64,000 nt of DNA from an uncultured Roseivirgaceae bacterium (GTDB taxonomy: Bacteria > Bacteroidota > Bacteroidia > Cytophagales > Cyclobacteriaceae). The notes under the pieces are model-generated. The model made no database searches. It was not told the origin of the DNA and was given only the letters and a program-made list of their open reading frames with translations. Of this stretch, positions 20,728 to 48,599 are shown in pieces (the first letter of the stretch is position 1; the number at the start of each line of letters is the position of its first letter). The stretch is from NCBI GenBank assembly GCA_964393795.1, contig CAYMWA010000002.1:15604-79603 (forward strand), in the 5' to 3' direction. Position numbers and translations under genes: made by a program.

Positions 20728-23151
20728 TCAAATGCTTTCTGCCGTAAAGACGCGCTTTACGCGTTCACTTGTATTCGTCAGAATCTCATAGGGAATCGTG
20801 TGGATGCTTTCGGCCAGCCCCTCAATAGGAAGGTCTTTTCCAAAAACAATGGCTTCGTCACCCTCCCGTGCCGGAATGCCGGTAATATCGACCATGGTCA
20901 TGTCCATGCACACATTGCCAACGACAGGTGCCGGTTTTCCATGCACCAATACCTGTCCGACTCCCTGACTAAAGGCCCGGCTGAACCCGTCGGCGTAGCC
21001 AATAGCAACGGTGGCGATGGTAAGCGGCTTGTCTGCCGTTCCCTTACGTCCGTAGCCAATACTCTCGCCTGTGGCAACGTGCCTGATTTGGGAGATGATG
21101 GTCTTGAGTGTCGCAACAGGTCTCAGGTTGTGTCCCGACCGTGTCGGATCGATGCCGTAGAGCCCGATGCCGAGTCGCACCATGTCGAACTGGAACTCCG
21201 GTAAGCGCAGGATGCCCGGCGTATTCAGGATATGGTATAGTGGACGTGCCGGAAGTTCGGCCGCGATCGCATCGGCGATGGACTTGAATCGTTCGGCCTG
21301 GGTCTTTGAAAACGCATCGTGAACCGCCTCATCGGCACCCGCCAGGTGGCTGAAGATGGAGGCCACATGAAGGTTGCGGTGTTCTTTCAGCAATGCGATC
21401 AACCCGGCCACTTGATCGACATCGAAACCGAGCCGTCGCATGCCGGTGTCGATCTTGATGTGGATGCTGCACGGCCTGTTGTCCAGGAAACGGATGAGGC
21501 TTTTGAGGATCCGGAAGCTGTACACTTCAGGCTCAAGCCTGTATCGCGACATGGCCTCGAATCCCTCTTCGGCGGGATTCATCACCATGATGGGTAAATC
21601 GATGTTGTTCTTTCTGAGCTCGACACCTTCGTCCGCATAAGCGACACCCAGATAGTCGATGCGATGGTACTGCAGCACGTTGGCAATTTCCACGCTGCCG
21701 CTTCCATACGCGAAAGCCTTCACCATCGCCATAATCCTCGTTTCCGGTTGCAGGCGGCTCTTGAAATAATGAAGGTTGTGCACGAGGGCGCCGAGATCGA
21801 TCTCCATGACAGTACCGTGAACCTTTCGCTGGATGTGGTTGACGATCTTTTCGAATGAAAAGACTCTTGCGCCTTTGACAAGAATCGCCTCATCCTGTAA
21901 TGTGGAGAAATCAAAGTCCGTTAGAAAATCTTCGGTCGAGCGATAGAAAATCGAATCGGAAGGGAATTGTTCCTGATGGGCAAAGAGCACCGGTCCTATA
22001 CCGACGAAGTGATCAATGTGCGCAGCCGAAACAAGCGACGCCATTCGCCTGACCACCTCCAGCGCCGAAAGTCCTGACTGATGGATGTCGGACAAAATCA
22101 CTCGCTTTCTTTGCTTTTGCTTTTGTTGTGAAAGAAAATCCAGACTTATCTGCAATCCGGCCAGATCGTTGTTGTATGTGTCGTCGATGATCTGGCATTG
22201 GTTAATCCCTTCCTTGATCTCCAGGCGCATGGGGATGGCGCGCAGCGATTGGACACGCGACTGAATTTCTTCCGGGGAAAGGCCAAAGTATAGCATCACC
22301 GCAACGCAGTGAAAGCAGTTCTCGATCGATGCAGGATCGGAGAAAGGAAGCGTAAGGTCAAACGACTTACCGTTGGTGATTATCGTATAGCCGCCCGACG
22401 CTTTGGCTATTTGGATGGTCGCACTTTCCTGGGCGCCCCACGAAAGACCACTTATGCCCGCCTCGCGGATGGCCTGGTCAATCGCCGTATGATCCTTGCA
22501 GTATACGACGACCTTTGACCCGGCGAAGAGCCGGAGTTTCTCCCGGATCTTTTCGTCGGTATTGCCAAAACCTTCATCATGTGCTGAACCGATGTTGGTG
22601 AACACACCAATGGTGGGGCGTAATATCTTTTGCAACCGGGCCATCTCTCCTGTGGTTGAGATCCCGGCTTCGAAGATGCCAAGCGTATGGTATGCTTGCA
22701 GCTGCCACACGGAAAGCGGCACTCCGAGTTGCGAATTGTAGCTTGCGGGGTTCTTGGCAATCTTAAAGTCTGGAGAAAGCAGCTGGTACAGCCATTCTTT
22801 GACAATCGTCTTTCCGTTACTGCCAGTCACCGCGATCACCGGCGCGTCGGTCTCCTGCCGATGAACCGATGCGATATCCTGAATAGCGCTGATGGAAGAA
22901 GCTACCTGCAACACGTTGGCATCACCACCGATCGCCACCGGTTTTTCGACGACAAACTGTCGAACACCGGCTTCATACAAAGCGTCGACGAACTGGTGCC
23001 CATCGTGGTGTAAGCCGTTGATCGCAAAAAACACAGCGCCCTCCGACACCAGCGCCTTCCGGCTGTCGGTCAGGAGATGGGTGACGGGCCGGTCCCCGAA
23101 ATGCTGAAGGATTTTGCCGCCGGTGATTCCGGGGAGTTGCGAAAAGAGCAT
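20728..23151 (-). CDS. alr: Bifunctional MurF-like ligase / alanine racemase
   Basis: VTGSNGKT Mur-ligase N-half. Racemase motifs MVKAFAYGSG (PLP Lys), IKIDTGMRRLG, VRLGIGLYG, IGYADG and VCMDM. Confidence 0.95.
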   Translation of the reverse strand: MLFSQLPGITGGKILQHFGDRPVTHLLTDSRKALVSEGAVFFAINGLHHDGHQFVDALYEAGVRQFVVEKPVAIGGDANVLQVASSISAIQDIASVHRQETDAPVIAVTGSNGKTIVKEWLYQLLSPDFKIAKNPASYNSQLGVPLSVWQLQAYHTLGIFEAGISTTGEMARLQKILRPTIGVFTNIGSAHDEGFGNTDEKIREKLRLFAGSKVVVYCKDHTAIDQAIREAGISGLSWGAQESATIQIAKASGGYTIITNGKSFDLTLPFSDPASIENCFHCVAVMLYFGLSPEEIQSRVQSLRAIPMRLEIKEGINQCQIIDDTYNNDLAGLQISLDFLSQQKQKQRKRVILSDIHQSGLSALEVVRRMASLVSAAHIDHFVGIGPVLFAHQEQFPSDSIFYRSTEDFLTDFDFSTLQDEAILVKGARVFSFEKIVNHIQRKVHGTVMEIDLGALVHNLHYFKSRLQPETRIMAMVKAFAYGSGSVEIANVLQYHRIDYLGVAYADEGVELRKNNIDLPIMVMNPAEEGFEAMSRYRLEPEVYSFRILKSLIRFLDNRPCSIHIKIDTGMRRLGFDVDQVAGLIALLKEHRNLHVASIFSHLAGADEAVHDAFSKTQAERFKSIADAIAAELPARPLYHILNTPGILRLPEFQFDMVRLGIGLYGIDPTRSGHNLRPVATLKTIISQIRHVATGESIGYGRKGTADKPLTIATVAIGYADGFSRAFSQGVGQVLVHGKPAPVVGNVCMDMTMVDITGIPAREGDEAIVFGKDLPIEGLAESIHTIPYEILTNTSERVKRVFTAESI

Positions 23152-32540: not shown

Positions 32541-33647
32541 TTGGGAAAAATCATCGTTATCGGCGGCGGTCTTGGCGGATTGGTTTCTTCTATACAACTG
32601 ATCCGGGCAGGACTATCGTGCACGGTGATCGAAAAAAAATCGTACCCGTTTCACCGCGTCTGCGGGGAATATGTTTCGAATGAAGCCCGTTCTTTTCTTA
32701 CTGCTTCAGGATTGTATCCCACCGGGCTGGATTTGCCACAAATACAATTTCTCAATGTGTCTTCGATTTCCGGTCACTCTTCTAAACTCGCTCTCGACCT
32801 TGGTGGTTTTGGGATCAGTCGATACACATTCGACCATCATTTGTACAACATCGCCCGGGAGGAGGGCGTCACTTTTCATCTCGACGCGGAGGTAACCGGT
32901 GTGCATTTCGAAGACGGCGTTTTCCAGGTCACCACGAAATCAACAGTACTGACCGCCGATGTGGTGATCGGCGCGTTTGGAAAGCGATCCAGAATCGATC
33001 ATCAACTGGACAGGGCTTTTATCAAAACACGATCGCCGTGGGTAGGTGTCAAGTACCATGCGCGAACAGATCATCCTGCGGACGTCATTGCGCTGCACAA
33101 TTTCCCCAGGGGTTACTGTGGCGTGTGCAGGGTAGACAACGGCCTGACTAACGTATGTTACCTGACGCATAGGGAAAACCTTAAAGAAGCAGGAGATCTG
33201 CACGCCATGGAAGAATCAACGCTGTTCGTCAATCCACTGATACGGGATCTTTTCGAACGAGCACAGTTTGTTTTTGAAAAACCGGAGGTCATCAATGAAG
33301 TCTCGTTCCAAACGAAGATGCCCATAGTGGATCACGTGTTAATGGTAGGTGATGCAGCGGGCATGATTACACCCGTGTGCGGAAACGGGATGGCCATTGC
33401 GATCCACTCCGGCAAGATCGTGGCCGAACTCGTCGCACAGTTTTGCGCCGGCACGATTGATCGGGCGACGCTTGAATTGCGCTATCGCGAGGCCTGGAAT
33501 GACCAGTTTAAACGCCGTCTTTGGTTCGGCCGCGCCATACAGAAACTGTTTGTACAGCCCTCCTTGTCCAAACTTGTAGTCCGAATGGCGATGGTGCGAC
33601 CGCTGGCTGGACATATTTTACGAAGCACGCATGGCCAACCCTTCTAG
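32541..33647 (+). CDS. FAD-dependent oxidoreductase (geranylgeranyl reductase/monooxygenase-like)
   Basis: IIVIGGGLGG, HRVCGEY.S.E, GAFGKRS and VGDAAGMITPVCGNGMAIA motifs. TTG start. Confidence 0.9.
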   Translation: MGKIIVIGGGLGGLVSSIQLIRAGLSCTVIEKKSYPFHRVCGEYVSNEARSFLTASGLYPTGLDLPQIQFLNVSSISGHSSKLALDLGGFGISRYTFDHHLYNIAREEGVTFHLDAEVTGVHFEDGVFQVTTKSTVLTADVVIGAFGKRSRIDHQLDRAFIKTRSPWVGVKYHARTDHPADVIALHNFPRGYCGVCRVDNGLTNVCYLTHRENLKEAGDLHAMEESTLFVNPLIRDLFERAQFVFEKPEVINEVSFQTKMPIVDHVLMVGDAAGMITPVCGNGMAIAIHSGKIVAELVAQFCAGTIDRATLELRYREAWNDQFKRRLWFGRAIQKLFVQPSLSKLVVRMAMVRPLAGHILRSTHGQPF

Positions 33648-33693
33648 CATAGGTGCAATCAATATTTTTTTACTACCTTAAACCACAAAAAGA

Positions 33694-34656
33694 ATGAACC
33701 GTCACGATTTTCTAAAATCACTGGGTTTTGCCGCACTGGCTGGCCCTACTGCAATTTCTGCGCTTTCCTGCGGCCCCAAGAAATCCACCGATCAGGCAGC
33801 CGCGACCACAGTCGAAACAAGTAGCGATCTCTTCTTCAAGATTTCGCTGGCAGAGTGGTCTTTGAACAAGCAATTGTTTGCCGGACAAATGAATCATCTC
33901 GACTTTCCTGCACGGGCAAAGAATGACTTTGGTATTGAGGCGATTGAGCATGTCAACCAGTTTTTCAAAGACAAGGCAAAAGACAAGGCCTATCTGGGAG
34001 AGTTGAAAATGCGATGTGACGACCTCGGCGTAAAGAGTGTGCTCATTATGTGCGACGGTGAAGGCGGATTGGGCAACACTCAGGAATCCGCAAGAATGCA
34101 AGCGGTTGACAATCATAAGAAGTGGGTGGAAGCCGCGCAATTCCTGGGCTGTCATGCCATCCGGGTGAACGCTTTTGGCGAGGGCACGGCAGAAGCCGTC
34201 GCGGCAGCTGCAACGCAAGGCCTGACCGCTTTATCACAGTTTGCGAAAGATTACAACATCAATGTCATCGTCGAGAACCATGGCGGCTATTCTTCGAATG
34301 GAAAATGGCTGGCCAATGTTATTGCCGGCACGCAAATGGACAACTGTGGAACGCTTCCTGATTTTGGTAATTTCTGTATTGTCCGTGAGAACAACGAATG
34401 CAAGGAGGAGTATGACCGCTACCAGGGTACCCGGGAGATGATGCCTTATGCCAAAGGGGTAAGTGCAAAAAGTATGAACTTTGATGCCGAAGGCAATTGT
34501 ATCGAGACAGACTATGAAAAAATGCTTCGCATTGTTCGTGATGCCGGCTACACCGGCCACATCGGTATAGAATACGAAGGCGACAAGCTGTCAGAGGAAG
34601 AGGGAATTCTCGCTACGAAAGCGTTGCTTGAACGCGTTGGAGCAAGCCTCTCATAA
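33694..34656 (+). CDS. Exported sugar-phosphate isomerase/epimerase (xylose-isomerase-like TIM barrel)
   Basis: [33 protein letters not shown] and IGIEYEG motifs. Tat-like N-terminus with lipobox ALSC. Confidence 0.85.
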
Positions 34657-34718
34657 ACGGAAATATTCTATCAGGACAGGGCGGCCACGCCCCGGGGTTG
34701 GAGCACCGCCCAGCCGGT

Positions 34719-35597
34719 CTATACGATCGCCTGAGTGCTGAAAAGCCACAGGAAATACGCGTTCAGGCAAATGCCGGAGATCAGGTTCATGCGCATGGCA
34801 TGGCGGTAATTGGCCGCACGTGCGTCTTTTGCTACCCGAACGAACCAATAGAAAAAGAAGGACAGCATTGGGACAAGCGCCAACAAGAAAACCCAGGCAT
34901 AGACATTTCCGAACGTCAATTTAAGATACACCAGAAAGCCTGCCAAAGCCACGGCAAAAGCCGTTGCCGCAAAATAGAAGGTGCCGGTAACCCCTAGTTT
35001 TGCACTGAGGGTTACATCACCCCTTTTTAAATCTTCTTCATGCTGGTAAACCTGCGTCAGCGGGTAGTTCGCCCACAGCATCGCACTCGTGAGCAGGCCC
35101 GGAATGACTACACTGATGTCTGCCACGCTTTCATGTTTCAAATCATTAACGCCGATGTATGCCATCGCGAACGTAAACAGTCCCTGGAAGATACCCGTAA
35201 TGAGCCAACTTGTCCACGCCAGCTTTTTCAAGCGGATCGCCGGATGGCTGTAAGCTTTGGAGACCAACCCGTAAATCAGCACCATGATGGCAAACGTGGT
35301 ATTGATTTTTATAAAACTCAGCATGATGGCGACAACATCGAATGACAGCGCCAGGAAGTAGAGGCCTTTGTTTACCGGGGGTGGGTTTTTCAGACCGCCG
35401 ATGCTTTTTTCATCCTTGTCGAAATAACTGTTGTATCCGTTGCTTGCCGGATATAGCAGGAAGTGAAGGATAAAGAACACCCAGAAGATCCTATCCCACT
35501 CCAGGTGGCGTGATATGCTCAAGCTGAATAGGAATATCGGTAGCAGGAAGAACGAGAACGGTATCCGTAAATGGAGCCAGGCAGCGCGCGAAAACAT
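34719..35597 (-). CDS. UbiA-superfamily prenyltransferase
   Basis: About 8 TM segments with the Asp-rich motifs NGYNSYFDKDE and YQHEEDLKRGDVT. Confidence 0.88.
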   Translation of the reverse strand: MFSRAAWLHLRIPFSFFLLPIFLFSLSISRHLEWDRIFWVFFILHFLLYPASNGYNSYFDKDEKSIGGLKNPPPVNKGLYFLALSFDVVAIMLSFIKINTTFAIMVLIYGLVSKAYSHPAIRLKKLAWTSWLITGIFQGLFTFAMAYIGVNDLKHESVADISVVIPGLLTSAMLWANYPLTQVYQHEEDLKRGDVTLSAKLGVTGTFYFAATAFAVALAGFLVYLKLTFGNVYAWVFLLALVPMLSFFFYWFVRVAKDARAANYRHAMRMNLISGICLNAYFLWLFSTQAIV

Positions 35598-35646
35598 AGG
35601 CGGCGGTTTTACATCAAGTTAGGGCTTTTAACTGTATTATTGAATT

Positions 35647-36750
35647 ATGAGTTACATCACGGCGATCGGCACCGCCAACCCGGCGAATCGCTACAGCCAG
35701 TCGCGAATTGCAGCTTTCATGCATCGGAGTATGCAATTCAGCAACGGAGAAGAGCGCAAGCTGAAGGCCGTGTTCCGCGCGAGCGGGATTGCCTATCGCC
35801 ATTCGGTCCTTGAAGACTATGGCAGGTTGGAGGGATATACCTTTTATCCAGACACCGCCGACCTTGAACCCTTCCCGACCACCGCCAAGCGCCTCGAGGT
35901 CTTCCGAACGCATGCGCTGAGTCTCAGCCTTGCATCGGTCGATGACATGCTGCAAGACTCCCCGCAGTTCCACATCGAGCGGGTAACACATTTGATCATG
36001 GTATGCTGTACCGGTATGTACGCGCCCGGTCTTGATATCGACCTGGTCAATTCCCTGGGCCTGTCCCCTTCAGTGAGTCGCACGGCCATCAACTTCATGG
36101 GATGCCACGCGTCCTTCAATGCGTTGAAGGTGGCAGATGCTTTTTGCAAAAGTGATCCGGATGCAAAAGTGCTGATCGTGTGTACGGAGCTGTGTACGAT
36201 ACATTTTCAACGCGTCGCGACCGACGACAATATTCTTGCAAACGCTTTGTTTGCGGATGGCGCTGCCGCGGTGTTGGTCGAAGCCGAGACCGAAAACCCT
36301 ATGCGCCTCGTCCTGGAACAATATCATTCGGTGCTCGCGCGCGAAGGTGCACGCGATATGGCATGGACGATAGGTGACCTCGGTTTTGAAATGCGGCTTT
36401 CTTCGTACGTGCCTGACCTGATCAGCGATGGTATTGGCGAATTGATGACCCGGTTGCTGACAAAGGGAGGCATTACCCGATCGCAGCTTGCGCACTACGC
36501 CATTCACCCCGGCGGAAAGAAAATACTTGAAGTGGCAGAACAGGCCCTGGAGATCACCAGGCACCAAAATGCTGCAGCGTATCACGTCTTGAAAAACTAC
36601 GGTAATATGTCTTCTCCCACCGTGTTATTTGTACTCAAAGAAGTCGTGCGAAAACTCAACGACTCCAATCACGGTGAACGCATTCTTGGCCTCGCCTTTG
36701 GCCCGGGGCTTACACTTGAAAGCATGATTCTTCGAATAGACAGACCTTGA
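35647..36750 (+). CDS. Type III polyketide synthase
   Basis: Catalytic triad context FMGC(H), IHPGG and YGNMSS. Also TELCTIH, LFADGAAA and AFGPGL. Confidence 0.95.
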   Translation: MSYITAIGTANPANRYSQSRIAAFMHRSMQFSNGEERKLKAVFRASGIAYRHSVLEDYGRLEGYTFYPDTADLEPFPTTAKRLEVFRTHALSLSLASVDDMLQDSPQFHIERVTHLIMVCCTGMYAPGLDIDLVNSLGLSPSVSRTAINFMGCHASFNALKVADAFCKSDPDAKVLIVCTELCTIHFQRVATDDNILANALFADGAAAVLVEAETENPMRLVLEQYHSVLAREGARDMAWTIGDLGFEMRLSSYVPDLISDGIGELMTRLLTKGGITRSQLAHYAIHPGGKKILEVAEQALEITRHQNAAAYHVLKNYGNMSSPTVLFVLKEVVRKLNDSNHGERILGLAFGPGLTLESMILRIDRP

Positions 36751-36753
36751 ACG

Positions 36754-37461
36754 ATGCCTGACTTTTCTCATCGCGCCACGGTTCAGGAATTGATGGACGA
36801 CCTTACGTCCGGAGGGAATGATCTTCACCAGGCGTTGCGCGAACTTGATACGATCAACGCCCTTCTCGGTGGGAACAGGGTGACCCTCGACGGAATTGCT
36901 GCGCTCCTGCGAGAGACACCCGAATCGGTGCACCTTCGCATTGCCGATGTCGGGTGTGGAAGTGGCGATCTCCTCAGGCTGACAAGAAACCTGTTAGTGA
37001 AGCAATCCCGCGCTGCCTCCCTTACGGGAATCGATGCCAATCCCAATGTTGTTGCGTACGCTGTGGCCCATACCCCTGCCCGTTACAAGATAGACTATCA
37101 GGTCATGAACATCTTCTCCGAAGCTTTCGACAACACACAATTTGACATTGTGATGGGCACACTCTTCTTTCACCACCTGAACGACGCGCAGTTGACTACC
37201 TTCCTCAGGAAGATGAAGGCGCAGGTCTCCATTGGTATGGTCATCAATGACATTCACCGGAATTGGTTTGCGTACTACGCGATCATGTGGCTCACGCGGT
37301 TCTTCTCACGTTCACCGATGGTGCGCCATGATGCCACACGCTCCGTGCTGAGGGCGTTCAGGAAGCATGAACTCGAATCCATCCTGAAGGTTGCGGGCAT
37401 TGCGCGGTACACCTTAAGGTGGCGATGGGCATTTCGCTGGCAGTTGATTATCCGGTTTTAG
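36754..37461 (+). CDS. SAM-dependent methyltransferase (PKS-associated type)
   Basis: ELMDD N-motif, DVGCGSGD, TLFFHH, INDIHR and HDA..SVLRAF. Starts 3 nt after the PKS stop. Confidence 0.9.
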   Translation: MPDFSHRATVQELMDDLTSGGNDLHQALRELDTINALLGGNRVTLDGIAALLRETPESVHLRIADVGCGSGDLLRLTRNLLVKQSRAASLTGIDANPNVVAYAVAHTPARYKIDYQVMNIFSEAFDNTQFDIVMGTLFFHHLNDAQLTTFLRKMKAQVSIGMVINDIHRNWFAYYAIMWLTRFFSRSPMVRHDATRSVLRAFRKHELESILKVAGIARYTLRWRWAFRWQLIIRF

Positions 37462-37596
37462 CGTCTCCCTGCCACGGCCATGTGAAAGGCATATGCGGGC
37501 ATCAAAGCGCGGGGTTTCGGCCGAACGCGCCAGAAAAGTCACAAGTGATGGAAAGTGGCACAATTTTTCGTAATTCGTAAGAAAATAAATACCATC

Positions 37597-38145
37597 ATGA
37601 AACCTCACTTCATACTATTTGTAGCATTCCTCATGCTCGGCGCTTGTTCACAGGGTCCTCTCGGCAAGAAAGTGAAGGAGCCCTTTAGCGGTAACGCTTA
37701 TAAATCGAACAACCGCTTTTTCAGGGCGACCGGTAAAGGCGAAAGTGTTAAGGACAACATCGCCAGAGGAAAGGCGGACATCGAAGCCAAAACCTTACTG
37801 GCGGGACAGGTCAACACGACCATGAAACAAGTGGCCGACCAATACCTGGGGCAGACGGAGAATGCCGATGCCGCTGATGTGGCAGATAAGTTTCAGAGCC
37901 TGGCGCGGGAGGTGATGAACACCGACCTTGCCGACCTGCGCAAAATTGGCGAACAAAAATACTTTGATGAAACAGACCGGAAGTACACCGTGTTCATCGC
38001 CTATGAAATCAAGAAAAACGCCATGCTGCGTTACATGAAAAAACAAGCGAAGGTCGACAAAACCGTGAATGAGCGGCAACGCGCTTTGATTGAAAAGATC
38101 ATCGACGAAGAGCTCGAAAAGGCCGACGCGGCCGACCACGATTAA
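37597..38145 (+). CDS. LPP20-like lipoprotein
   Basis: Lipobox LGAC, with RATGKG...AK..LAGQV pattern. Confidence 0.7.
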   Translation: MKPHFILFVAFLMLGACSQGPLGKKVKEPFSGNAYKSNNRFFRATGKGESVKDNIARGKADIEAKTLLAGQVNTTMKQVADQYLGQTENADAADVADKFQSLAREVMNTDLADLRKIGEQKYFDETDRKYTVFIAYEIKKNAMLRYMKKQAKVDKTVNERQRALIEKIIDEELEKADAADHD

Positions 38146-39992: not shown

Positions 39993-40877
39993 TCACCCGC
40001 CTGCCTGAAGGCCGCCCGTGTGAAGGAACAGGACGGTATCCCCCCGACTGAATGTGCCTGACTTCATCTGGTCCAACAATGCGTGAAAAGCCTTCGCGGT
40101 ATAGATGCGGTCAAGTGGAAGATTCCAATCAGCACGCATCTCCCGGATAAAATCCAACAGAACGGGTGTATCCTTGGCATATCCACCATAATGATAATCC
40201 GTGAGCAACGACCAGTGGGGCCACTTGCCGGAAGTTGCCGACGCCATCCTGGAAATGTCCTCCGACAAAAAAGCACCGTTTTTCAATACGACTACTCCAA
40301 TCACATTTTTGTTCTCTTTCATTCCGCAAATAAGACCTGCCATTGTGCCGCCGGTGCCCACCGGCAGTATGAGATGATCGAAATTGACCGGAGCGAGATG
40401 CCGGGCGGCAAATTCAGCACAACCCTTGACAGCGAGCAGGTTTGAACCCCCTTCGGGCAGCAGATAAAAGTTGCCGAATTTTTCCCGTAGGTGATCAAGA
40501 AAGACAGGGTCGTCTTTTTCACGGTAGTCGCTGCGGCTGATATAATGCAAATGCATCCCCTGATCGACTGCAAAACGAAGCACGGGGTTGAGCGGTAACA
40601 CTTCCTCGCCGCGGATAACGCCGATTGATTTCAGATTGGCATGCGCACAGGCCGCGGCGGCGGCGTAAATATGATTGGAGTATGCACCGCCGAATGTCAG
40701 AAGTGTCGATGCTTGCATCCGTTGTGCTTCTTGCAAGTTGTATCTGAGCTTCCACCATTTGTTTCCGGAAACGGCCGGATGGTTGAGGTCCTCGCGCTTG
40801 ACGATCAATCGGACACCGGCCGTTTTGGCAATGGGGTGCTCGCTTAAGTCCTGGATGGGCGTTGATCGGTATTCCAC
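39993..40877 (-). CDS. PLP-dependent D-cysteine desulfhydrase/ACC deaminase-family enzyme
   Basis: KREDL, SGNKWWKL, TFGGAYSNH, PEGGSN, VGTGGT, LD.IYTAK and LHTGGLQ motifs. Confidence 0.9.
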   Translation of the reverse strand: MEYRSTPIQDLSEHPIAKTAGVRLIVKREDLNHPAVSGNKWWKLRYNLQEAQRMQASTLLTFGGAYSNHIYAAAAACAHANLKSIGVIRGEEVLPLNPVLRFAVDQGMHLHYISRSDYREKDDPVFLDHLREKFGNFYLLPEGGSNLLAVKGCAEFAARHLAPVNFDHLILPVGTGGTMAGLICGMKENKNVIGVVVLKNGAFLSEDISRMASATSGKWPHWSLLTDYHYGGYAKDTPVLLDFIREMRADWNLPLDRIYTAKAFHALLDQMKSGTFSRGDTVLFLHTGGLQAGG

Positions 40878-40994: not shown

Positions 40995-42059
40995 GTGATG
41001 GAGGACGAATATTTCAAAGGCAGGGGCGCACAGATAAAAACCGGCAACAAATTTCTCAAAGCCGACTACGTAACCGAGCACATCGAAGGGCTCGATGAGC
41101 CGATGTTGTCTTCTCCGGCGACGCAGGTTTTTCACGAGCGTCCGAAACAGATTGTCAACAAAGTGACAAGCCCTGATCTCGGAATGATGTACTCGCTGAA
41201 TCCTTATCAGGGATGTGAACACGGATGTATATATTGTTACGCGAGAAACTCCCACGAATATTGGGGTTTCAGCGCGGGACTTGATTTCGAAAGCAAGATC
41301 ATCGTGAAGGAGTCGGCACCCGCACTGCTGGAAAAATTTCTGCTTCGTCCCTCCTGGCAGGCAGTGCCGATCTCCGTTTCAGGCAACACCGATTGCTATC
41401 AGCCGCTTGAGCGCAAATTTGAAATAACGCGAAATATCCTCAAGGTTTTTGCCAGGTACCGCCATCCCGTGGGAATCATCACGAAGAATTCACTCATCCT
41501 TCGCGACCTTGACCTGCTATCTGATTTGGCAAAAGATCACCTGGTGCACGTCTACATTTCCATCACCTCATTAGACGAAGAACTCAGAAGAGCAATGGAG
41601 CCGCGCACCGCCAGTGCTTTGAAACGACTGAAGACTGTTGAGGCACTGTCGAAGGCGGGCATTCCTGTTGGCATCATGAACGCACCCATTATCCCCGGGC
41701 TCAACCACCATGAAATCCCTGCGATACTGAAAGCCGCCGCCGAACACGGGGCGCTCAATGCCGGCATGACGGTCGTGCGACTTAACGGTTCCATTGGGAA
41801 AATCTTTGAAGACTGGCTTCGAAAGAATTTCCCTGACCGTTTCGACAAGGTGTGGAATCAGATATGCTCGCTGCATGGAGGCAATGTCAACGATTCTTCT
41901 TTTGGCAGGCGCATGGTGGGAGAAGGCAACTTCGCCGATACCATCCATCAGCTCTTCCGCGTTTCGAAGAAGAAGTACCTGGCTGATCGCCATATGCCGC
42001 CGATTAACCTGACCCGGTTTCGCCGGGGCGGCAACCTGAGTCTGTTTGGCAACGCGTGA
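40995..42059 (+). CDS. PA0069-family radical SAM protein (SplB-like, DNA repair-associated)
   Basis: GRGAQ, NPYQGCEHGCIYCYAR (CxxxCxxC), GLDFESKI, TDCYQP and MEPRT motifs. Confidence 0.92.
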   Translation: MMEDEYFKGRGAQIKTGNKFLKADYVTEHIEGLDEPMLSSPATQVFHERPKQIVNKVTSPDLGMMYSLNPYQGCEHGCIYCYARNSHEYWGFSAGLDFESKIIVKESAPALLEKFLLRPSWQAVPISVSGNTDCYQPLERKFEITRNILKVFARYRHPVGIITKNSLILRDLDLLSDLAKDHLVHVYISITSLDEELRRAMEPRTASALKRLKTVEALSKAGIPVGIMNAPIIPGLNHHEIPAILKAAAEHGALNAGMTVVRLNGSIGKIFEDWLRKNFPDRFDKVWNQICSLHGGNVNDSSFGRRMVGEGNFADTIHQLFRVSKKKYLADRHMPPINLTRFRRGGNLSLFGNA

Positions 42060-43543: not shown

Positions 43544-46500
43544 TCAGAAGCCGTCGTCCTCGACTTCTTCCTCTTTTTTCACCGGCGGCGGCACTTGCTC
43601 AACGGCCTCTTCCCGCTTGTCGGGCTGCGGCTCAACGGAAGGCGGCGTAGTATCAGGTGGTGTCTGGGGGTTGTCCTGACCAGGGCCTGGTATTGTCTGA
43701 ATGGGCAAGGTGTTCATAAACGGCGTGGTCTCCAGTGGCGCGGGTCCTTCGTATAAACTGTATGGCACATCAATGCCGAGGTATTGTTTTCTGAATCGGT
43801 TGATGAAAGCCACGGTCTCTTCGTCGCTGCCGGGAACGAAGGCGACTTCGCCGATCTTTGCTTTGCCGGCGTTTGTCTTTTTGGTGATGATGTCGTTAAA
43901 CTCCTTGTTGGATGAATGGACGAGCAGCCGGTTGTCTTCAATACCGAAGTAGTACCACGACTCCGCCGAAGCCTTGAAAAAGACGTTGAAGATCGAAATG
44001 CCGTCGCTTGTCCTGCGGAATTCCATGAACCCTTCGAAGCCGCCGTTAATGTCGGTTCTGTTGCTGTGTGAAATTCCAAGCTTGCCTTCACTGTAAAATG
44101 CCTTGTGTTCTGGTGACCACTTCAACTTGACGTTAGAAAACACCAACGGCTTTACCAGTTGAGGCAACGTGGAGAGGGAGACATACCCCTGACGGCTTTG
44201 TGCTTCATATTCTTTGACAGGACGCTCACCCACAATGTTGGCGATCTTGTAAAGCAGTTCAGTCTGATCACCGAGTCCTTCCTCGGCCCCTTCATTCTTG
44301 ATGACGTCAACCAGCTCACGCGCCATCACATCAAAGGCGGCGGAAGGAACATCGGTTTCCATCATGATAAACGAATTCAGATTGACATCCTGGCCGTTAA
44401 AGTTGGCTGAGCCGATCGCTGTCGCCGTGATATTAAAGTTCTTCCCGCCAGAATAAAGGTTGACGTTCCCTTCGAACTTTGTTTGCGTCGTTTCATCGCT
44501 ATAGGTGAATACTTTGCCCGACAATTTGTTGCCCGCTGCCTTTTCTGTATCCTCAATTTTATATTCCTTCGATTCGTTGTCATAGAAAAGCTTGCCCGAC
44601 GGTGTAAAAAAGTCGTCGTCGTACTCCGACCGCTTGTCACTGGCAAACGTGAGATAAAGGCTGTTGTCGGCGGCAGAGAAATGAAGCCCGGCGTTTAACT
44701 TCTTGCCATCTTCATCAACGGCGTTGTCAAAGTCCAGGATCACTTCCGTCTCATCGCCGGTCTGGCTGTATTCAATCCAGGTGTTGTAGTCTTTTATTTT
44801 TTTGATGTCGAGCTTGATGTAGCCGTCCAGTTGTAGGGCGGGCCTGGTCGCGTACATCGTCATGTCGCCTTTGTAGAACATGCCTGCACCCAACACCAGG
44901 TTTTCGCTCTCTCTGACCGATCCTTTTGCAACGGTTTGCATAGATGCTTCTGATCGGCGACGGCTGGACCGTCTCGCGCCTTCCTCGGGAAGGATGGGCT
45001 CGAGATGGAAATCCGTCATCTTGATCGCAAAGGTATCGCTCAGGAAGTTGACATATTGATACGTAGCATAGCCCGAGAACTCTTTTCGGGAAATGATGTC
45101 GACCACGCCCTCGGTAAGGCGGTGATAGCCGTTCAGGGTGTCGAGCACAATGGTTGTATTTTTCAGTGTGCCGATCCGTGCATTTTCATGAATGAGTACC
45201 TCGTTGTTTTCGGGCGTGATGCGCGCGTCGGCGACAATGATATACGGAATGCCGCTGACTTTCAGCTCCTGCTTCTTGAGATCGTATTCAGCCTTTTCCG
45301 CATTGAAGTAAAGGGAGTCGAGTTCTTTCCGTGTGGTGTAGAAGTACGAGTTTTCTATCGGCACGTCAGGTGCTTTGCTCATCGTAATCTTCTGGGCTGT
45401 CAGATCCCATCGCGCACGCGGAATGGACGTCTTGAATTGCGCGTACGGGAACTCGATGGCCGCCGTCCCTTCTATCTCCGGGCTGATATCGGCATAGTTC
45501 TCTTCGAGGTTGAATTTGAGCCGGATGTCATCTCCCGCGAGCAGGTTCTTGTTGGGGTCATCCGACTTTACCTTGAACCGCGCGTGTCGAGCGCCGAATT
45601 CCTTACCAAGGAAATTCATTTCCCGTGAAACCAGTTCGGTACCGCGGGTCTCCAGCCTTCCTGCACCGGCCACCCCCTTTTTGGAGATCGTAATCACGCC
45701 GCGCATTTGTGCTGTTGAGTCGTAAAAGTTGAACGGTGCCTGCAGGTTCTTGAGTTGCATCCTGTCCTGCTTGGGCAACCACTTCATCTGAAAATCAGGG
45801 AGGGATGCCTGCGGGAACAGCACCGAGCCGAACTGCTTCTCCTGAATGTAAGCCCGGTTGCCTCGCGCCACTACTGAGTCCGGATAGAATGTAAAATCGC
45901 GCGATCGCACACTGGCTGCGAGAAAATCAATCTGCCCCTGACCGCGCAAACCGCGGGTGTTCATCGTCAGCACGCCGTTCATCTTGCCATCACCCTTATA
46001 GAGCTGATAACCGGGTGGTGGAATGTAGTGTTCGAAGCCCAGCGATTTGTCAGGCATGGTGTGTAACGTTTCCTTGATCGAAGGGAACATGCCACTGGAT
46101 ATGAATGTGCCGTCGAACTTGATGGAAAGGGGATCCGCGTTGTTCAAACTGTCAAGCTTGAAAGGCGGGACGACGAAGAACATCGACCTGTCGTAGACAC
46201 CACTTAGGATTTCCTCTCGGTCGAAGTAAATGACCCCGCCCGTGGTCGCGTCGAGACGCGGATAACCCGGAACGTCTTCTTTCCCTGATTTATTGTTGGC
46301 GCGGCTGATGTACAAGGTTCCCGATGAAGCGGAAGCGTTTCCGAGTCCTCCGGCAGCCGCAACAGCCGAGTCAGCACCTACCATGGCGTTGTTGACCTTT
46401 CGGCGAATCAGCTGGCCCCTTGCATTCTTCTCAGTAACGTAAAAATTGATCGAGTCAATGTGCGTGAGACTGATGAAGAAACTGTCGTATTTCAGCGTGA

Positions 46501-48505
46501 AGCCCTTTCCGGTGATCTCGAAATTGCCTGCGTAGACTGTTCCGTCGAACTTGATGTCGCGGTTCTGCAAAATGGTGATCACGCTGCTGTCGGGAACGAT
46601 GTGTACGTTGAGTGAATCGCTCACCTTGAATTCTTCGACACCCCTCACCCGCATGTTCCGTTCATCGAAATTGACGGTGGCATTGGGATGCGTATCGATC
46701 ACGCTGTGGATTTTCAGATTGTCATAGTCTTCTTCGCCCTTGTTTGCGAGGTAAATATCGATCGCCCGCTGCTTTACCTGAACGATGTCGGTGCGCGCGT
46801 CGTAGTTGACAAGGCCTTTCTCCTTCAGGAATATCATGGCGTTTTTGATTTCCATCGGATTCTTGCGTACAAACTGAGCAAGATCACCCGAGTAAAATTC
46901 GCGCACGCCGTTTTTCAATGCATAGTTGGCGACCAGGGCCACGGGGTGGAAAGTGAAGCCGACACCTTTCAAAACGCGGTAGTCGTTCGGGTCATAAAAA
47001 TCGACCGATTCGATAATCACGGGCACGGCATTGCGCGCACCGTCTATCTGCACGTTAAGACTGTCGGAGTACAAATCCCAGCGCAGCGCATCAGCAGAGA
47101 AGTCGACGTTGAAAAAACTTGAGCTGTAAGGAGCGTTGCGCATGGCCCCCTTGTCTTTCTGCAGGAGCAGCCGTTGTGTGCTGTCGGCCCCATAGGTGTA
47201 CTTGAGCCGCACCATCTGATGCACGATGGAGTCATTGCCCTGATGAATGCTGATTTTTGTTTTTTCCGATGAGATAACACCCGGAGAAAAATCGAACTGT
47301 CCTGACCGGGCTGTAAATTTTTTTTGCCCCCGATTGTACACTTCTATGACAGCCGGATCGCCGGCTACGCTCGCGCTTGAGATCTTGTTTCCGGTCAACG
47401 AAAAGCCGCCTTTGTAGCGGACGTTATCATCTGCGATGCCAGTGATCACGAGGTTGCTTTCGTATGATTTGAAGCGTGGGTATGAGGCGTACGTAGAATC
47501 TTTACGCGTCTCGGATTTGTATTCAAAAGTTCCCGGGATAAAGCCGGGTGTCTTGCCTACGTAGTTGAGCTTTACCAACGCCGATGTGAGTTGCGGTCTC
47601 CTGGTGTCGAAGTCGTAGGTGGTCATATTGCAAATAAGCGAATCGGGACTCAGACCCGCCTCGGTCCAGTCAAATGATCCGCCTTCTCCTGCGAAGACTG
47701 GTTCACTCAGCGAAAATGTGCCCTTCGTGTTACGCAAGAAAACAGAGTCGTAACGCGTGACAAAGTTGAGGGTTACCCTGTCAAATTGGATCACTGGTCC
47801 GCTGAGTTCTTTCGGCAACGGCGGTGTCATCCAACTGGGCATGAAGTCTTGCGCTAACGGAGCCGCGTCTTCTGTGTACGTGTTGTCTTGCCATGCATCT
47901 TCCGACCAGGGGTCAGAACCATTATCGGCAGGAGCCGGATCATCCCAGCCCGACGAAGGTGCGTTGTCTGCGGGTGGAGGATCGTCCCAGCTCAACGTTT
48001 CCTGCGGAACAACCTCCAGGAACTCGAATGAATAGGAATCATCGCGCGCGTACAACCGGAACGTATTGTCATATGACAAGGCATGGTGTTGGAAGAAGCG
48101 GCGGCTGGCTTCAAAAAAATATTGCGTCTGGGCAGCGGTGGAGTTTTCAATCACTTTGCCAGCGACAGCAAGGTAGCCGGAGAGCGTGTTGGCATCGGCA
48201 CGTTCGATGCTGACCGCATTCACAATCGCGCCGAAATAGTTGACGATGTGCGGTCTGAGTGCGAGCTTTCTCCGGCGCATCTGCTGCGTTTGTTTCTTGA
48301 TAAGCATTTGTTGATCAAGACCCAGCTGGCCCCAAATGGAGAAGAATCCTGATCCGACAACCGTTGCGTCAAGGCTTCGCGTATTTTCCAGTACCACGCG
48401 GATGCTATCGGGAAAACTGAGCGGCAATGCCGCACGATCGCCCTGAGCATAGCTCAACGCCGAAGCGGCAAGGATCACACATGGTAGAATAAAAGCTCGT
48501 TTCAC
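43544..48505 (-). CDS. Very large (~1650 aa) secreted hypothetical protein
   Basis: Uninterrupted ORF. Probable GTG start at 48505 gives the signal peptide MKRAFILPCVILAASALSYAQ. The body is beta-strand-rich and the tail is Pro/acidic. Confidence 0.85.
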   Translation of the reverse strand: MKRAFILPCVILAASALSYAQGDRAALPLSFPDSIRVVLENTRSLDATVVGSGFFSIWGQLGLDQQMLIKKQTQQMRRRKLALRPHIVNYFGAIVNAVSIERADANTLSGYLAVAGKVIENSTAAQTQYFFEASRRFFQHHALSYDNTFRLYARDDSYSFEFLEVVPQETLSWDDPPPADNAPSSGWDDPAPADNGSDPWSEDAWQDNTYTEDAAPLAQDFMPSWMTPPLPKELSGPVIQFDRVTLNFVTRYDSVFLRNTKGTFSLSEPVFAGEGGSFDWTEAGLSPDSLICNMTTYDFDTRRPQLTSALVKLNYVGKTPGFIPGTFEYKSETRKDSTYASYPRFKSYESNLVITGIADDNVRYKGGFSLTGNKISSASVAGDPAVIEVYNRGQKKFTARSGQFDFSPGVISSEKTKISIHQGNDSIVHQMVRLKYTYGADSTQRLLLQKDKGAMRNAPYSSSFFNVDFSADALRWDLYSDSLNVQIDGARNAVPVIIESVDFYDPNDYRVLKGVGFTFHPVALVANYALKNGVREFYSGDLAQFVRKNPMEIKNAMIFLKEKGLVNYDARTDIVQVKQRAIDIYLANKGEEDYDNLKIHSVIDTHPNATVNFDERNMRVRGVEEFKVSDSLNVHIVPDSSVITILQNRDIKFDGTVYAGNFEITGKGFTLKYDSFFISLTHIDSINFYVTEKNARGQLIRRKVNNAMVGADSAVAAAGGLGNASASSGTLYISRANNKSGKEDVPGYPRLDATTGGVIYFDREEILSGVYDRSMFFVVPPFKLDSLNNADPLSIKFDGTFISSGMFPSIKETLHTMPDKSLGFEHYIPPPGYQLYKGDGKMNGVLTMNTRGLRGQGQIDFLAASVRSRDFTFYPDSVVARGNRAYIQEKQFGSVLFPQASLPDFQMKWLPKQDRMQLKNLQAPFNFYDSTAQMRGVITISKKGVAGAGRLETRGTELVSREMNFLGKEFGARHARFKVKSDDPNKNLLAGDDIRLKFNLEENYADISPEIEGTAAIEFPYAQFKTSIPRARWDLTAQKITMSKAPDVPIENSYFYTTRKELDSLYFNAEKAEYDLKKQELKVSGIPYIIVADARITPENNEVLIHENARIGTLKNTTIVLDTLNGYHRLTEGVVDIISRKEFSGYATYQYVNFLSDTFAIKMTDFHLEPILPEEGARRSSRRRSEASMQTVAKGSVRESENLVLGAGMFYKGDMTMYATRPALQLDGYIKLDIKKIKDYNTWIEYSQTGDETEVILDFDNAVDEDGKKLNAGLHFSAADNSLYLTFASDKRSEYDDDFFTPSGKLFYDNESKEYKIEDTEKAAGNKLSGKVFTYSDETTQTKFEGNVNLYSGGKNFNITATAIGSANFNGQDVNLNSFIMMETDVPSAAFDVMARELVDVIKNEGAEEGLGDQTELLYKIANIVGERPVKEYEAQSRQGYVSLSTLPQLVKPLVFSNVKLKWSPEHKAFYSEGKLGISHSNRTDINGGFEGFMEFRRTSDGISIFNVFFKASAESWYYFGIEDNRLLVHSSNKEFNDIITKKTNAGKAKIGEVAFVPGSDEETVAFINRFRKQYLGIDVPYSLYEGPAPLETTPFMNTLPIQTIPGPGQDNPQTPPDTTPPSVEPQPDKREEAVEQVPPPVKKEEEVEDDGF

Positions 48506-48599
48506 CTCAATAAACCTTGAAATTCGCAAATTATCGGTAAATAAACTACGGTCTTTTTGAAACGGGAAAATGTGGTGGTTATGGTGACGTTTATGCAAA

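Follow-up and report, generated by a model that had tools for sequence, protein, structure and literature searches.

In this study we describe a small group of biosynthetic genes in a 64,000-nt stretch of DNA, referred to here as the window, from an uncultured Roseivirgaceae bacterium (GCA_964393795.1, contig CAYMWA010000002.1, 15,604 to 79,603, forward strand). The group comprises a type III polyketide synthase (PKS), a methyltransferase (MT), a UbiA-type membrane prenyltransferase and a flavin adenine dinucleotide (FAD)-dependent oxidoreductase, called the flavoprotein below. Genes were identified from open reading frame (ORF) calls and from Pfam and NCBIfam family scans of the window proteins. 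The analysis directly establishes what the four enzymes are, that they are intact and that their genes are tightly and repeatedly coupled; together they may well form a pathway to a prenylated phenolic lipid.

The type III PKS and its neighbours

The PKS gene (35647-36750, + strand) encodes a PKS18-like protein in which both chalcone synthase-like domains lie above threshold (PF00195, 90.4 bits; PF02797, 87.5 bits; Pfam cutoff 27 for each). Its stop codon is separated by 3 nt from the start of a class I S-adenosylmethionine (SAM) methyltransferase gene (36754-37461, + strand; PF13649, 48.7 bits). On its other side, an intergenic region of 49 nt, read from the sequence (35598-35646), separates the PKS start from the start of the divergent UbiA gene (34719-35597, - strand; PF01040, 64.8 bits against a cutoff of 34.2). 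Beyond UbiA follow a xylose-isomerase-like triosephosphate isomerase (TIM)-barrel lipoprotein (33694-34656, + strand; PF01261, 76.3 bits) and the flavoprotein, which belongs to a PKS-associated family (32541-33647, + strand; PF01494, 54.7 bits). The 3-nt and 49-nt spacings and an FAD oxidoreductase one gene away had already been described in a first-pass annotation of this DNA, and all were borne out, the one intervening gene being the TIM barrel that precedes UbiA.

We infer that the 49-nt gap is a control region shared by UbiA and PKS; in relatives the gap between the two ORFs has a median of 52 nt. A scan for sigma-70 promoters and terminators performed no better than on shuffled sequence and is uninformative for Bacteroidota. 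In soil metatranscriptomes, contigs that match the window almost exactly extend across the UbiA/PKS junction and over MT, which provides weak evidence of expression. One such contig (35483-35706) runs from ~115 nt inside the UbiA gene through the 49-nt gap to nucleotide 60 of PKS: either the transcript of one gene begins within the other, or DNA was carried over into the RNA library.

The closest solved relative of the PKS is PKS18 of Mycobacterium tuberculosis (PDB 1ted, E 1.6e-47), a distant match of 165 bits over 360 residues. In the alignment C153, H287 and N320 fall on the NFMGC, AIHPGG and GNM motifs, which we take to contain the catalytic residues of PKS18. These three residues and C183 are invariant in 12 PKS orthologues, so that the intact Cys-His-Asn triad proposed at first pass is confirmed by both the alignment and the conservation. 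C183 itself is aligned to Cys205 of PKS18, a small residue at the entrance of the long acyl tunnel and the sole position that differs between 1ted and 1tee (the C205F mutant). Because a small cysteine thus occupies the position of this tunnel residue, the sequence fits a long-chain acyl starter. By analogy, we propose that the enzyme is a long-chain alkylresorcinol (or alkylpyrone) synthase. Among 185,579 species genomes, its best match, in metagenome-assembled genomes (MAGs) of Chryseosolibacter and Chryseolinea, reaches only 68% identity.

The term in brackets needs to be weighed, as PKS18, the closest solved structure, is a long-chain alkylpyrone synthase, and the cyclisation could be of the resorcinol or of the pyrone type. 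In ArsB, Trp281 is the resorcinol determinant, and a Gly is found there in the pyrone-forming ArsC (PMC9927152); neither of the two was among the PDB matches listed for the window PKS. If the window enzyme were an alkylpyrone synthase, the products of the locus would be methylated and possibly prenylated alkyl-pyrones. We consider this quite unlikely: all tested operons that combine PKS, MT and FAD enzyme gave alkylresorcinols, namely hid and the planctomycete operon (PMC10896814, PMC6836626) as well as srs and pkq (PMC9927152), and a ring hydroxylase is chemically sensible for a resorcinol.

The adjoining MT matches the PRK06202 model with 141.5 bits, below its cutoff of 243. A PKS is accompanied by the same MT family in Lentisphaeria (123.7 bits) as well as in alphaproteobacterial operons (32-35% identity).

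Gene coupling in Cytophagales and beyond

Starting from PKS orthologues (53-68% identity), we collected the 80 surrounding genome loci and located on them the window proteins as well as all ORF families; 74 of these loci have enough upstream sequence for counting UbiA and flavoprotein genes. UbiA is divergent from and adjacent to PKS in 61 of the 74 loci, while flavoprotein orthologues are located upstream of PKS in 55 of them (7 directly adjacent, where UbiA is absent); MT follows PKS in 74/77 loci. Hence the arrangement seen in the window is far beyond chance. A lack of co-occurrence of UbiA and flavoprotein with PKS in relatives had been named in the first-pass annotation as a reason to abandon its reading, and these counts show that the co-occurrence holds. 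The divergent UbiA-PKS-MT unit is kept beside at least five unrelated upstream neighbourhoods: it may be preceded, for example, by the flavoprotein gene or the TIM-barrel gene, by an insert with MFS and TetR genes, by ScpB/RluB genes, by an acyl-CoA ligase gene together with PolA, or by various singletons. Genes for DUF2911, LOG and Asp-protease/PDZ proteins and a downstream lipoprotein are likewise conserved around the locus. In Pontibacter, Rufibacter and others we found FAD enzyme, PKS and MT in one direction without UbiA, and in Ohtaekwangia and Dawidia only PKS and MT.

At three Cytophagales loci (L037, L047 and L080) a protein of ~550 amino acids (aa) is encoded directly upstream of UbiA and beside polA. 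Its translation, read by eye, has the hallmarks of an AMP-dependent long-chain acyl-CoA ligase, and it may supply the PKS starter or be there by coincidence.

Around more distant UbiA relatives the same genes are combined in other ways. In Saprospiraceae they form an operon in the order YceI, UbiA, PKS, MT and FAD enzyme, in which all four enzymes are 33-36% identical to those of the window and the UbiA stop codon overlaps the TTG start of PKS. Dyadobacter carries UbiA and PKS in one ORF of 652 aa, followed by MT and FAD enzyme, an arrangement shared by six cluster members from separate contigs. Taken at first as Rosetta-stone proof, this ORF was downgraded to an instance of tight operonic coupling and not a proven fusion enzyme. 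Two unassigned metagenome lineages show PKS, a small ORF, a UbiG-like MT and UbiA in one direction, and then YceI or an NnrU/ICMT-like gene. In Lentisphaeria (L081/L082, MAG GCA_003516325.1) a leftward run of PKS, MT, U32-like and glyoxalase genes, in map order, is divergent from rightward UbiA, cydA and cydB, and UbiA is again paired with PKS and a PRK06202-type MT.

A metagenome scan seeded on the Lentisphaeria UbiA protein yielded 80 further loci, and in 45 of them UbiA is flanked on either side by 1.3 kb or more. Among these 45, a type III PKS lies within 700 bp in 36; 28 have the MT and 23 have the flavoprotein. Eight of the 45 have no PKS; two of the eight lie beside a PF04240 carotenoid-biosynthesis protein, and one has UbiA followed by cydA and cydB.

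It might be asked whether UbiA acts independently of the PKS module. PKS, MT and flavoprotein would then make a non-prenylated, hierridin-like or PkQ-like alkyl-methoxy-phenol or quinone, UbiA would prenylate, for example, a carotenoid or another aromatic compound, and the adjacency would be due to shared regulation or synteny. Such a separation would agree with the PKS-MT and FAD-PKS-MT loci that exist without UbiA, with the subfamily loci that have no PKS, including the two beside a PF04240 protein, and with the synteny of the flanking housekeeping genes. It is, however, improbable in our view, since UbiA and PKS are repeatedly neighbours, be it in a divergent, a colinear-overlapping or a single-ORF arrangement, and are so across Cytophagales, Saprospiraceae, Lentisphaeria and metagenome lineages without assignment, where the other neighbours are unrelated.

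The prenyltransferase and the flavoprotein

A phmmer search with the window UbiA gave 779 matches at E<=1e-3 among 1.84 billion representatives. Because its relatives are so few, the protein is, judged by sequence, a member of a small and deeply divergent subfamily. There was no significant match among PDB sequences, and no homologue was found in a plasmid collection. An AlphaFold2 (AF2) model built on 24 members (pLDDT 96.3, pTM 0.93) adopts the UbiA fold with its nine helices, and Foldseek ranks DGGGP synthase (7bpu), AfUbiA (4tq4, TM 0.70), UBIAD1 (8djk) and ApUbiA (4od4) as the best matches. At each of the positions N55, D59, D61, R121, K123, Q184, H185 and D188 the residue is shared by 90% or more of the 24 members. 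The Asp-rich motifs are present in variant form, N55-x3-D59-x-D61 and Q184-H185-E-E-D188-x4-D, with a spacing that departs from the canonical NDxxDxxxD.

The first-pass annotation had also considered that UbiA could simply be MenA. This idea is not without support, as some orthologue records are automatically named 1,4-dihydroxy-2-naphthoate octaprenyltransferase and menaquinone-7 (MK-7) is the major quinone reported for relatives (PMC9296434). The window protein, however, scores 19 bits with the MenA model (NCBIfam NF004750) against a cutoff of 346, has no PDB sequence match, and is linked to PKS and not to men genes; its 779 relatives do not extend to the large MenA and UbiA families, which are beyond the reach of phmmer. 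We therefore rejected MenA, which is extremely improbable as the identity of this gene. ChlG models are likewise far below cutoff.

Several members of the subfamily are unusual. A sub-clade of ~500 aa proteins (P0142, P0170, P0213, P0240 and P0256; loci L086 and L089) carries an extra C-terminal domain of ~200 aa without Pfam match. No PKS is found near UbiA in L086 and L089, and in L086, as well as for a normal-length member in L091, a YceI gene and a gene for an unknown protein of ~230 aa lie beside UbiA. P0220 (920 aa, from a JGI metagenome) joins a UbiA domain to a YdbH-like intermembrane phospholipid-transport domain (PF11739, 82.9 bits). In L111 and L114 (6320-7870) the UbiA-subfamily gene overlaps the end of the gene for a PF04240 'carotenoid biosynthesis protein'. 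Haloarchaea pair lycopene elongase/hydratase genes in a comparable way, and by this analogy some members of the subfamily may prenylate carotenoids and not polyketides.

For the flavoprotein, the best NCBIfam model is the geranylgeranyl reductase (GGR) family TIGR02032 (95.7 bits, below the cutoff of 158.8), and the best PDB matches are flavin halogenases (5buk, E 7.5e-12). Flavin-dependent halogenases are marked by WxWxIP and a catalytic Lys. Despite the PDB matches we rejected a halogenase, as WxWxIP occurs nowhere in the protein and GYCGVCRV stands in its place. In an alignment with alphaproteobacterial homologues P36, C41-G42-E43, G191-Y192 and G270-D271 are invariant. Homologues of 25-29% identity occupy the third position in PKS-MT-FAD operons of Paracoccus and Roseomonas plasmids, and one in Novosphingobium adjoins a type III PKS; no prenyltransferase was found near any of these loci, and their PKS and MT are homologous to those of the window as well. 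In L084 and L087 the flavoprotein shares one operon with PKS and MT. The alphaproteobacterial PKS-MT-FAD operons and the FAD-PKS-MT loci of Hymenobacteraceae, both without UbiA, indicate at the level of sequence that the flavoprotein acts on the polyketide ring and not on the prenyl chain. We propose, by analogy, that it is a ring hydroxylase with a role like that of SrsC, PkqC and HidB.

Alternatively, the flavoprotein might be GGR-like and saturate the prenyl chain installed by UbiA, in which case the pathway would end in a prenylated methyl ether of an alkylresorcinol and not in a hydroquinone. Enzymes of the GGR type have precedents in the dihydrogeranyl group of the Actinoplanes products and in MenJ, which acts on menaquinone. 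TIGR02032 as best family match, weak matches to the MenJ and DGGGPL reductase models, the GGR structure 3oz2 among the top PDB matches and the invariant C41-G42-E43, which to our eyes resembles the GGR cysteine motif, all agree with this possibility. The score, however, is below the family cutoff, and orthologues of 46-53% identity adjoin PKS-MT in genomes without UbiA within 8 kb. The alphaproteobacterial operons again have no nearby prenyltransferase, the NCBI pipeline labels their flavoproteins FAD-dependent monooxygenase, and two anaerobe-type loci have a U32-like protein in place of the flavoprotein. A chain reductase is thus unlikely, and we retain the ring hydroxylase as the preferred function.

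The U32-like protein of these two loci (L081 and L143) matches PDB 5d88 at E 3e-10 and, as a distant member, the Pfam U32 family at 24 bits. The U32 family includes O2-independent hydroxylases, and by analogy this protein may be an O2-independent replacement for the hydroxylase.

Proposed pathway, setting and implications

We consider it rather probable that the locus encodes a pathway to a prenylated and methylated lipid of the cytoplasmic membrane, either a long-chain alkyl-resorcinol or an alkyl-hydroquinone, a proposal built on analogy with characterised gene sets. The pathway would have four steps, all of which we infer, the last three possibly in another order. PKS would take a long-chain fatty acyl thioester and three malonyl units to give a 5-alkylresorcinol or alkylresorcylic acid, and MT would methylate the ring. 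The FAD enzyme would hydroxylate the ring to yield an alkyl-methoxy-hydroquinone/quinone pair, as reported for SrsC, PkqC and HidB, to which the hydroxylase role has been assigned (PMC9927152, PMC6836626). UbiA would use a diphosphate donor to attach a prenyl or polyprenyl group to a ring carbon or hydroxyl (compare AgqD in Actinoplanes). The product could be an envelope lipid, an antioxidant or a redox carrier, and our data are open to all three.

The set is best read, again by analogy, as an alkylresorcinol-to-hydroquinone module of the srs/pkq/hid type to which a prenyltransferase has been added, analogous to agq of Actinoplanes. The precedents named at first pass, srs and pkq (PMC9927152) and agq (PMC10896814, PMC4044012), are confirmed in the literature. 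According to Awakawa et al. 2011, as cited in PMC4044012 and PMC10896814, agqABCD of Actinoplanes missouriensis produces alkyl-O-dihydrogeranyl-methoxyhydroquinones, and the prenylation there is an O-prenylation. Compared by enzyme class, agq and the Micromonospora los cluster, which has UbiA, MT and PKS genes (PMC7587189), resemble the window in that an alkylresorcinol-forming type III PKS is clustered with an MT, with an oxidoreductase or oxygenase, and with a UbiA-type membrane prenyltransferase whose substrate is the small polyketide. In contrast to agq, which is from Actinomycetota, the window locus belongs to Bacteroidota, has another gene order and strand layout, contains a UbiA from a small and deeply divergent subfamily, and is situated in a conserved core chromosome and not in a sporadic biosynthetic island.

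The polyketide quinone operons srsABC (Streptomyces griseus) and pkqABC (Mycobacterium smegmatis, Streptomyces sp. MNU77; PMC9927152) are alike by enzyme class in that PKS, MT and oxidoreductase turn an alkylresorcinol into an alkyl-methoxy-benzoquinone, and their PKS-MT-FAD order recurs in the alphaproteobacterial homologues of the window proteins. They differ in having no prenyltransferase and in that an electron-carrier role has been demonstrated in actinobacteria. In the window the three genes of this module are encoded together, with the flavoprotein two genes away from PKS. The same three-enzyme module is found in hidABC of picocyanobacteria (hierridins) and in the mtr-fdo-t3pks operon of Planctomycetota, where it is widespread, conserved within the phylum and yields C15/C17 alkylresorcinols experimentally (PMC6836626, PMC8086630, PMC10896814). 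There, however, the order is MT-FAD-PKS, the end products are non-prenylated methoxy-phenols, and UbiA is absent save for one predicted prenyltransferase in a Raphidiopsis cluster (PMC8086630). We found no paper on this cluster or on its Bacteroidota product, in agreement with the first-pass statement that no characterised product was known.

Several observations weigh against a prenylated alkylresorcinol or hydroquinone pathway. Much of the conservation among the 80 loci is ordinary synteny, in which flanking housekeeping genes are kept too. The UbiA subfamily is not uniformly linked to PKS (8/45 loci lack it), so the link is strong and not universal. The single ORF of Dyadobacter is weaker support than a first look suggests, as an in-frame TTG opens its PKS part and the same codon serves as the PKS start in Saprospiraceae; a functional fused cytosolic PKS is doubtful because a nine-helix UbiA should end outside the cytoplasm. 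The flavoprotein has its best model, below cutoff, in the GGR superfamily and carries a CGE motif, which leaves room for a reductase role, and the cyclisation mode of the PKS, as said above, could be either one.

The first-pass annotation had suggested a membrane meroterpenoid or an alternative electron carrier. The prenylated membrane lipid has gained support, whereas for the electron carrier there is a hint only. UbiA is located directly upstream of cydA and cydB in the anaerobe-type loci L081 and L162, NDH-2 is encoded near the Dyadobacter operon, and YceI polyisoprenoid-binding genes lie beside UbiA in several loci. Because of these neighbours and the U32-like gene in L081 and L143, one might speculate that the UbiA-PKS-MT-hydroxylase set makes unrecognised prenylated polyketide quinols that serve as a second respiratory or redox quinone beside MK-7 and feed cytochrome bd in Bacteroidota and the Planctomycetes-Verrucomicrobia-Chlamydiae (PVC) group, with an O2-independent, anaerobe-type U32 variant in place of the flavin hydroxylase. 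We regard this extended version as unlikely.

The window as a whole is part of an ordinary core chromosome from soil Cytophagales, with genes for RecJ, iPGM, PurK, FeoB, MurF-Alr, MetK and NusA and an even GC content of about 0.48-0.57, and near-identical DNA is present in soil, landfill and manure metagenomes. The TIM-barrel protein, which matches the structural-genomics entry 4ovx at E 3.5e-98, has an N-terminal signal peptide and lipobox. Its gene family is present in 17/80 related genome loci; elsewhere there is nothing in its place or a TetR+MFS insert. As an exported lipoprotein close to 4ovx and found in so few loci, it was rejected as a pathway enzyme, and its gene is probably an optional insertion unrelated to the pathway. 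Downstream of MT, a gene for a lipoprotein of 196 aa (37555-38145, + strand) has no Pfam or NCBIfam match. At 64-84% identity it is more conserved than the biosynthetic enzymes; most Cytophagales loci with UbiA have it behind MT, loci without UbiA lack it, and it was not found in the Saprospiraceae or Dyadobacter operons. Its membership in the pathway is uncertain, and it may be there by plain synteny, since it tracks UbiA in one syntenic clade only and is absent from the distant operons.

Further downstream, a PA0069-family radical SAM protein (40995-42059, + strand; 493 bits) adjoins a pyridoxal phosphate (PLP) enzyme resembling 1-aminocyclopropane-1-carboxylate (ACC) deaminase and D-cysteine desulfhydrase (39993-40877, - strand), and a TauE sulfite-exporter-like gene is found there as well; these genes have no evident link to the PKS locus. 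The window also contains an ORF of 1684 aa (43544-48598, - strand) without Pfam match at E<=1e-3 and an ORF of 807 aa (20728-23151, - strand) in which a Mur ligase domain is joined to a complete alanine racemase, as a fusion of the MurF-Alr type.

The kind of pathway proposed here is already known from actinomycetes; new are the phylum and the orphan UbiA subfamily. If the proposal is true, many soil and aquatic Cytophagales, Saprospiraceae and some bacteria of the PVC group would make an undescribed prenylated phenolic lipid with a gene set that is compact and easily transferred, and the membranes of Bacteroidota would be known to contain one more lipid class. At the same time a substrate would be assigned to a UbiA subfamily that has no solved or curated relative. 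As the cluster is small and conserved and is carried by cultured organisms, among them Chryseolinea serpens DSM 24574, Chryseosolibacter spp. and a Dyadobacter sp., these ideas are directly testable. Should the link to cytochrome bd be meaningful, polyketide-quinone respiratory carriers would be extended from actinobacteria to other phyla.

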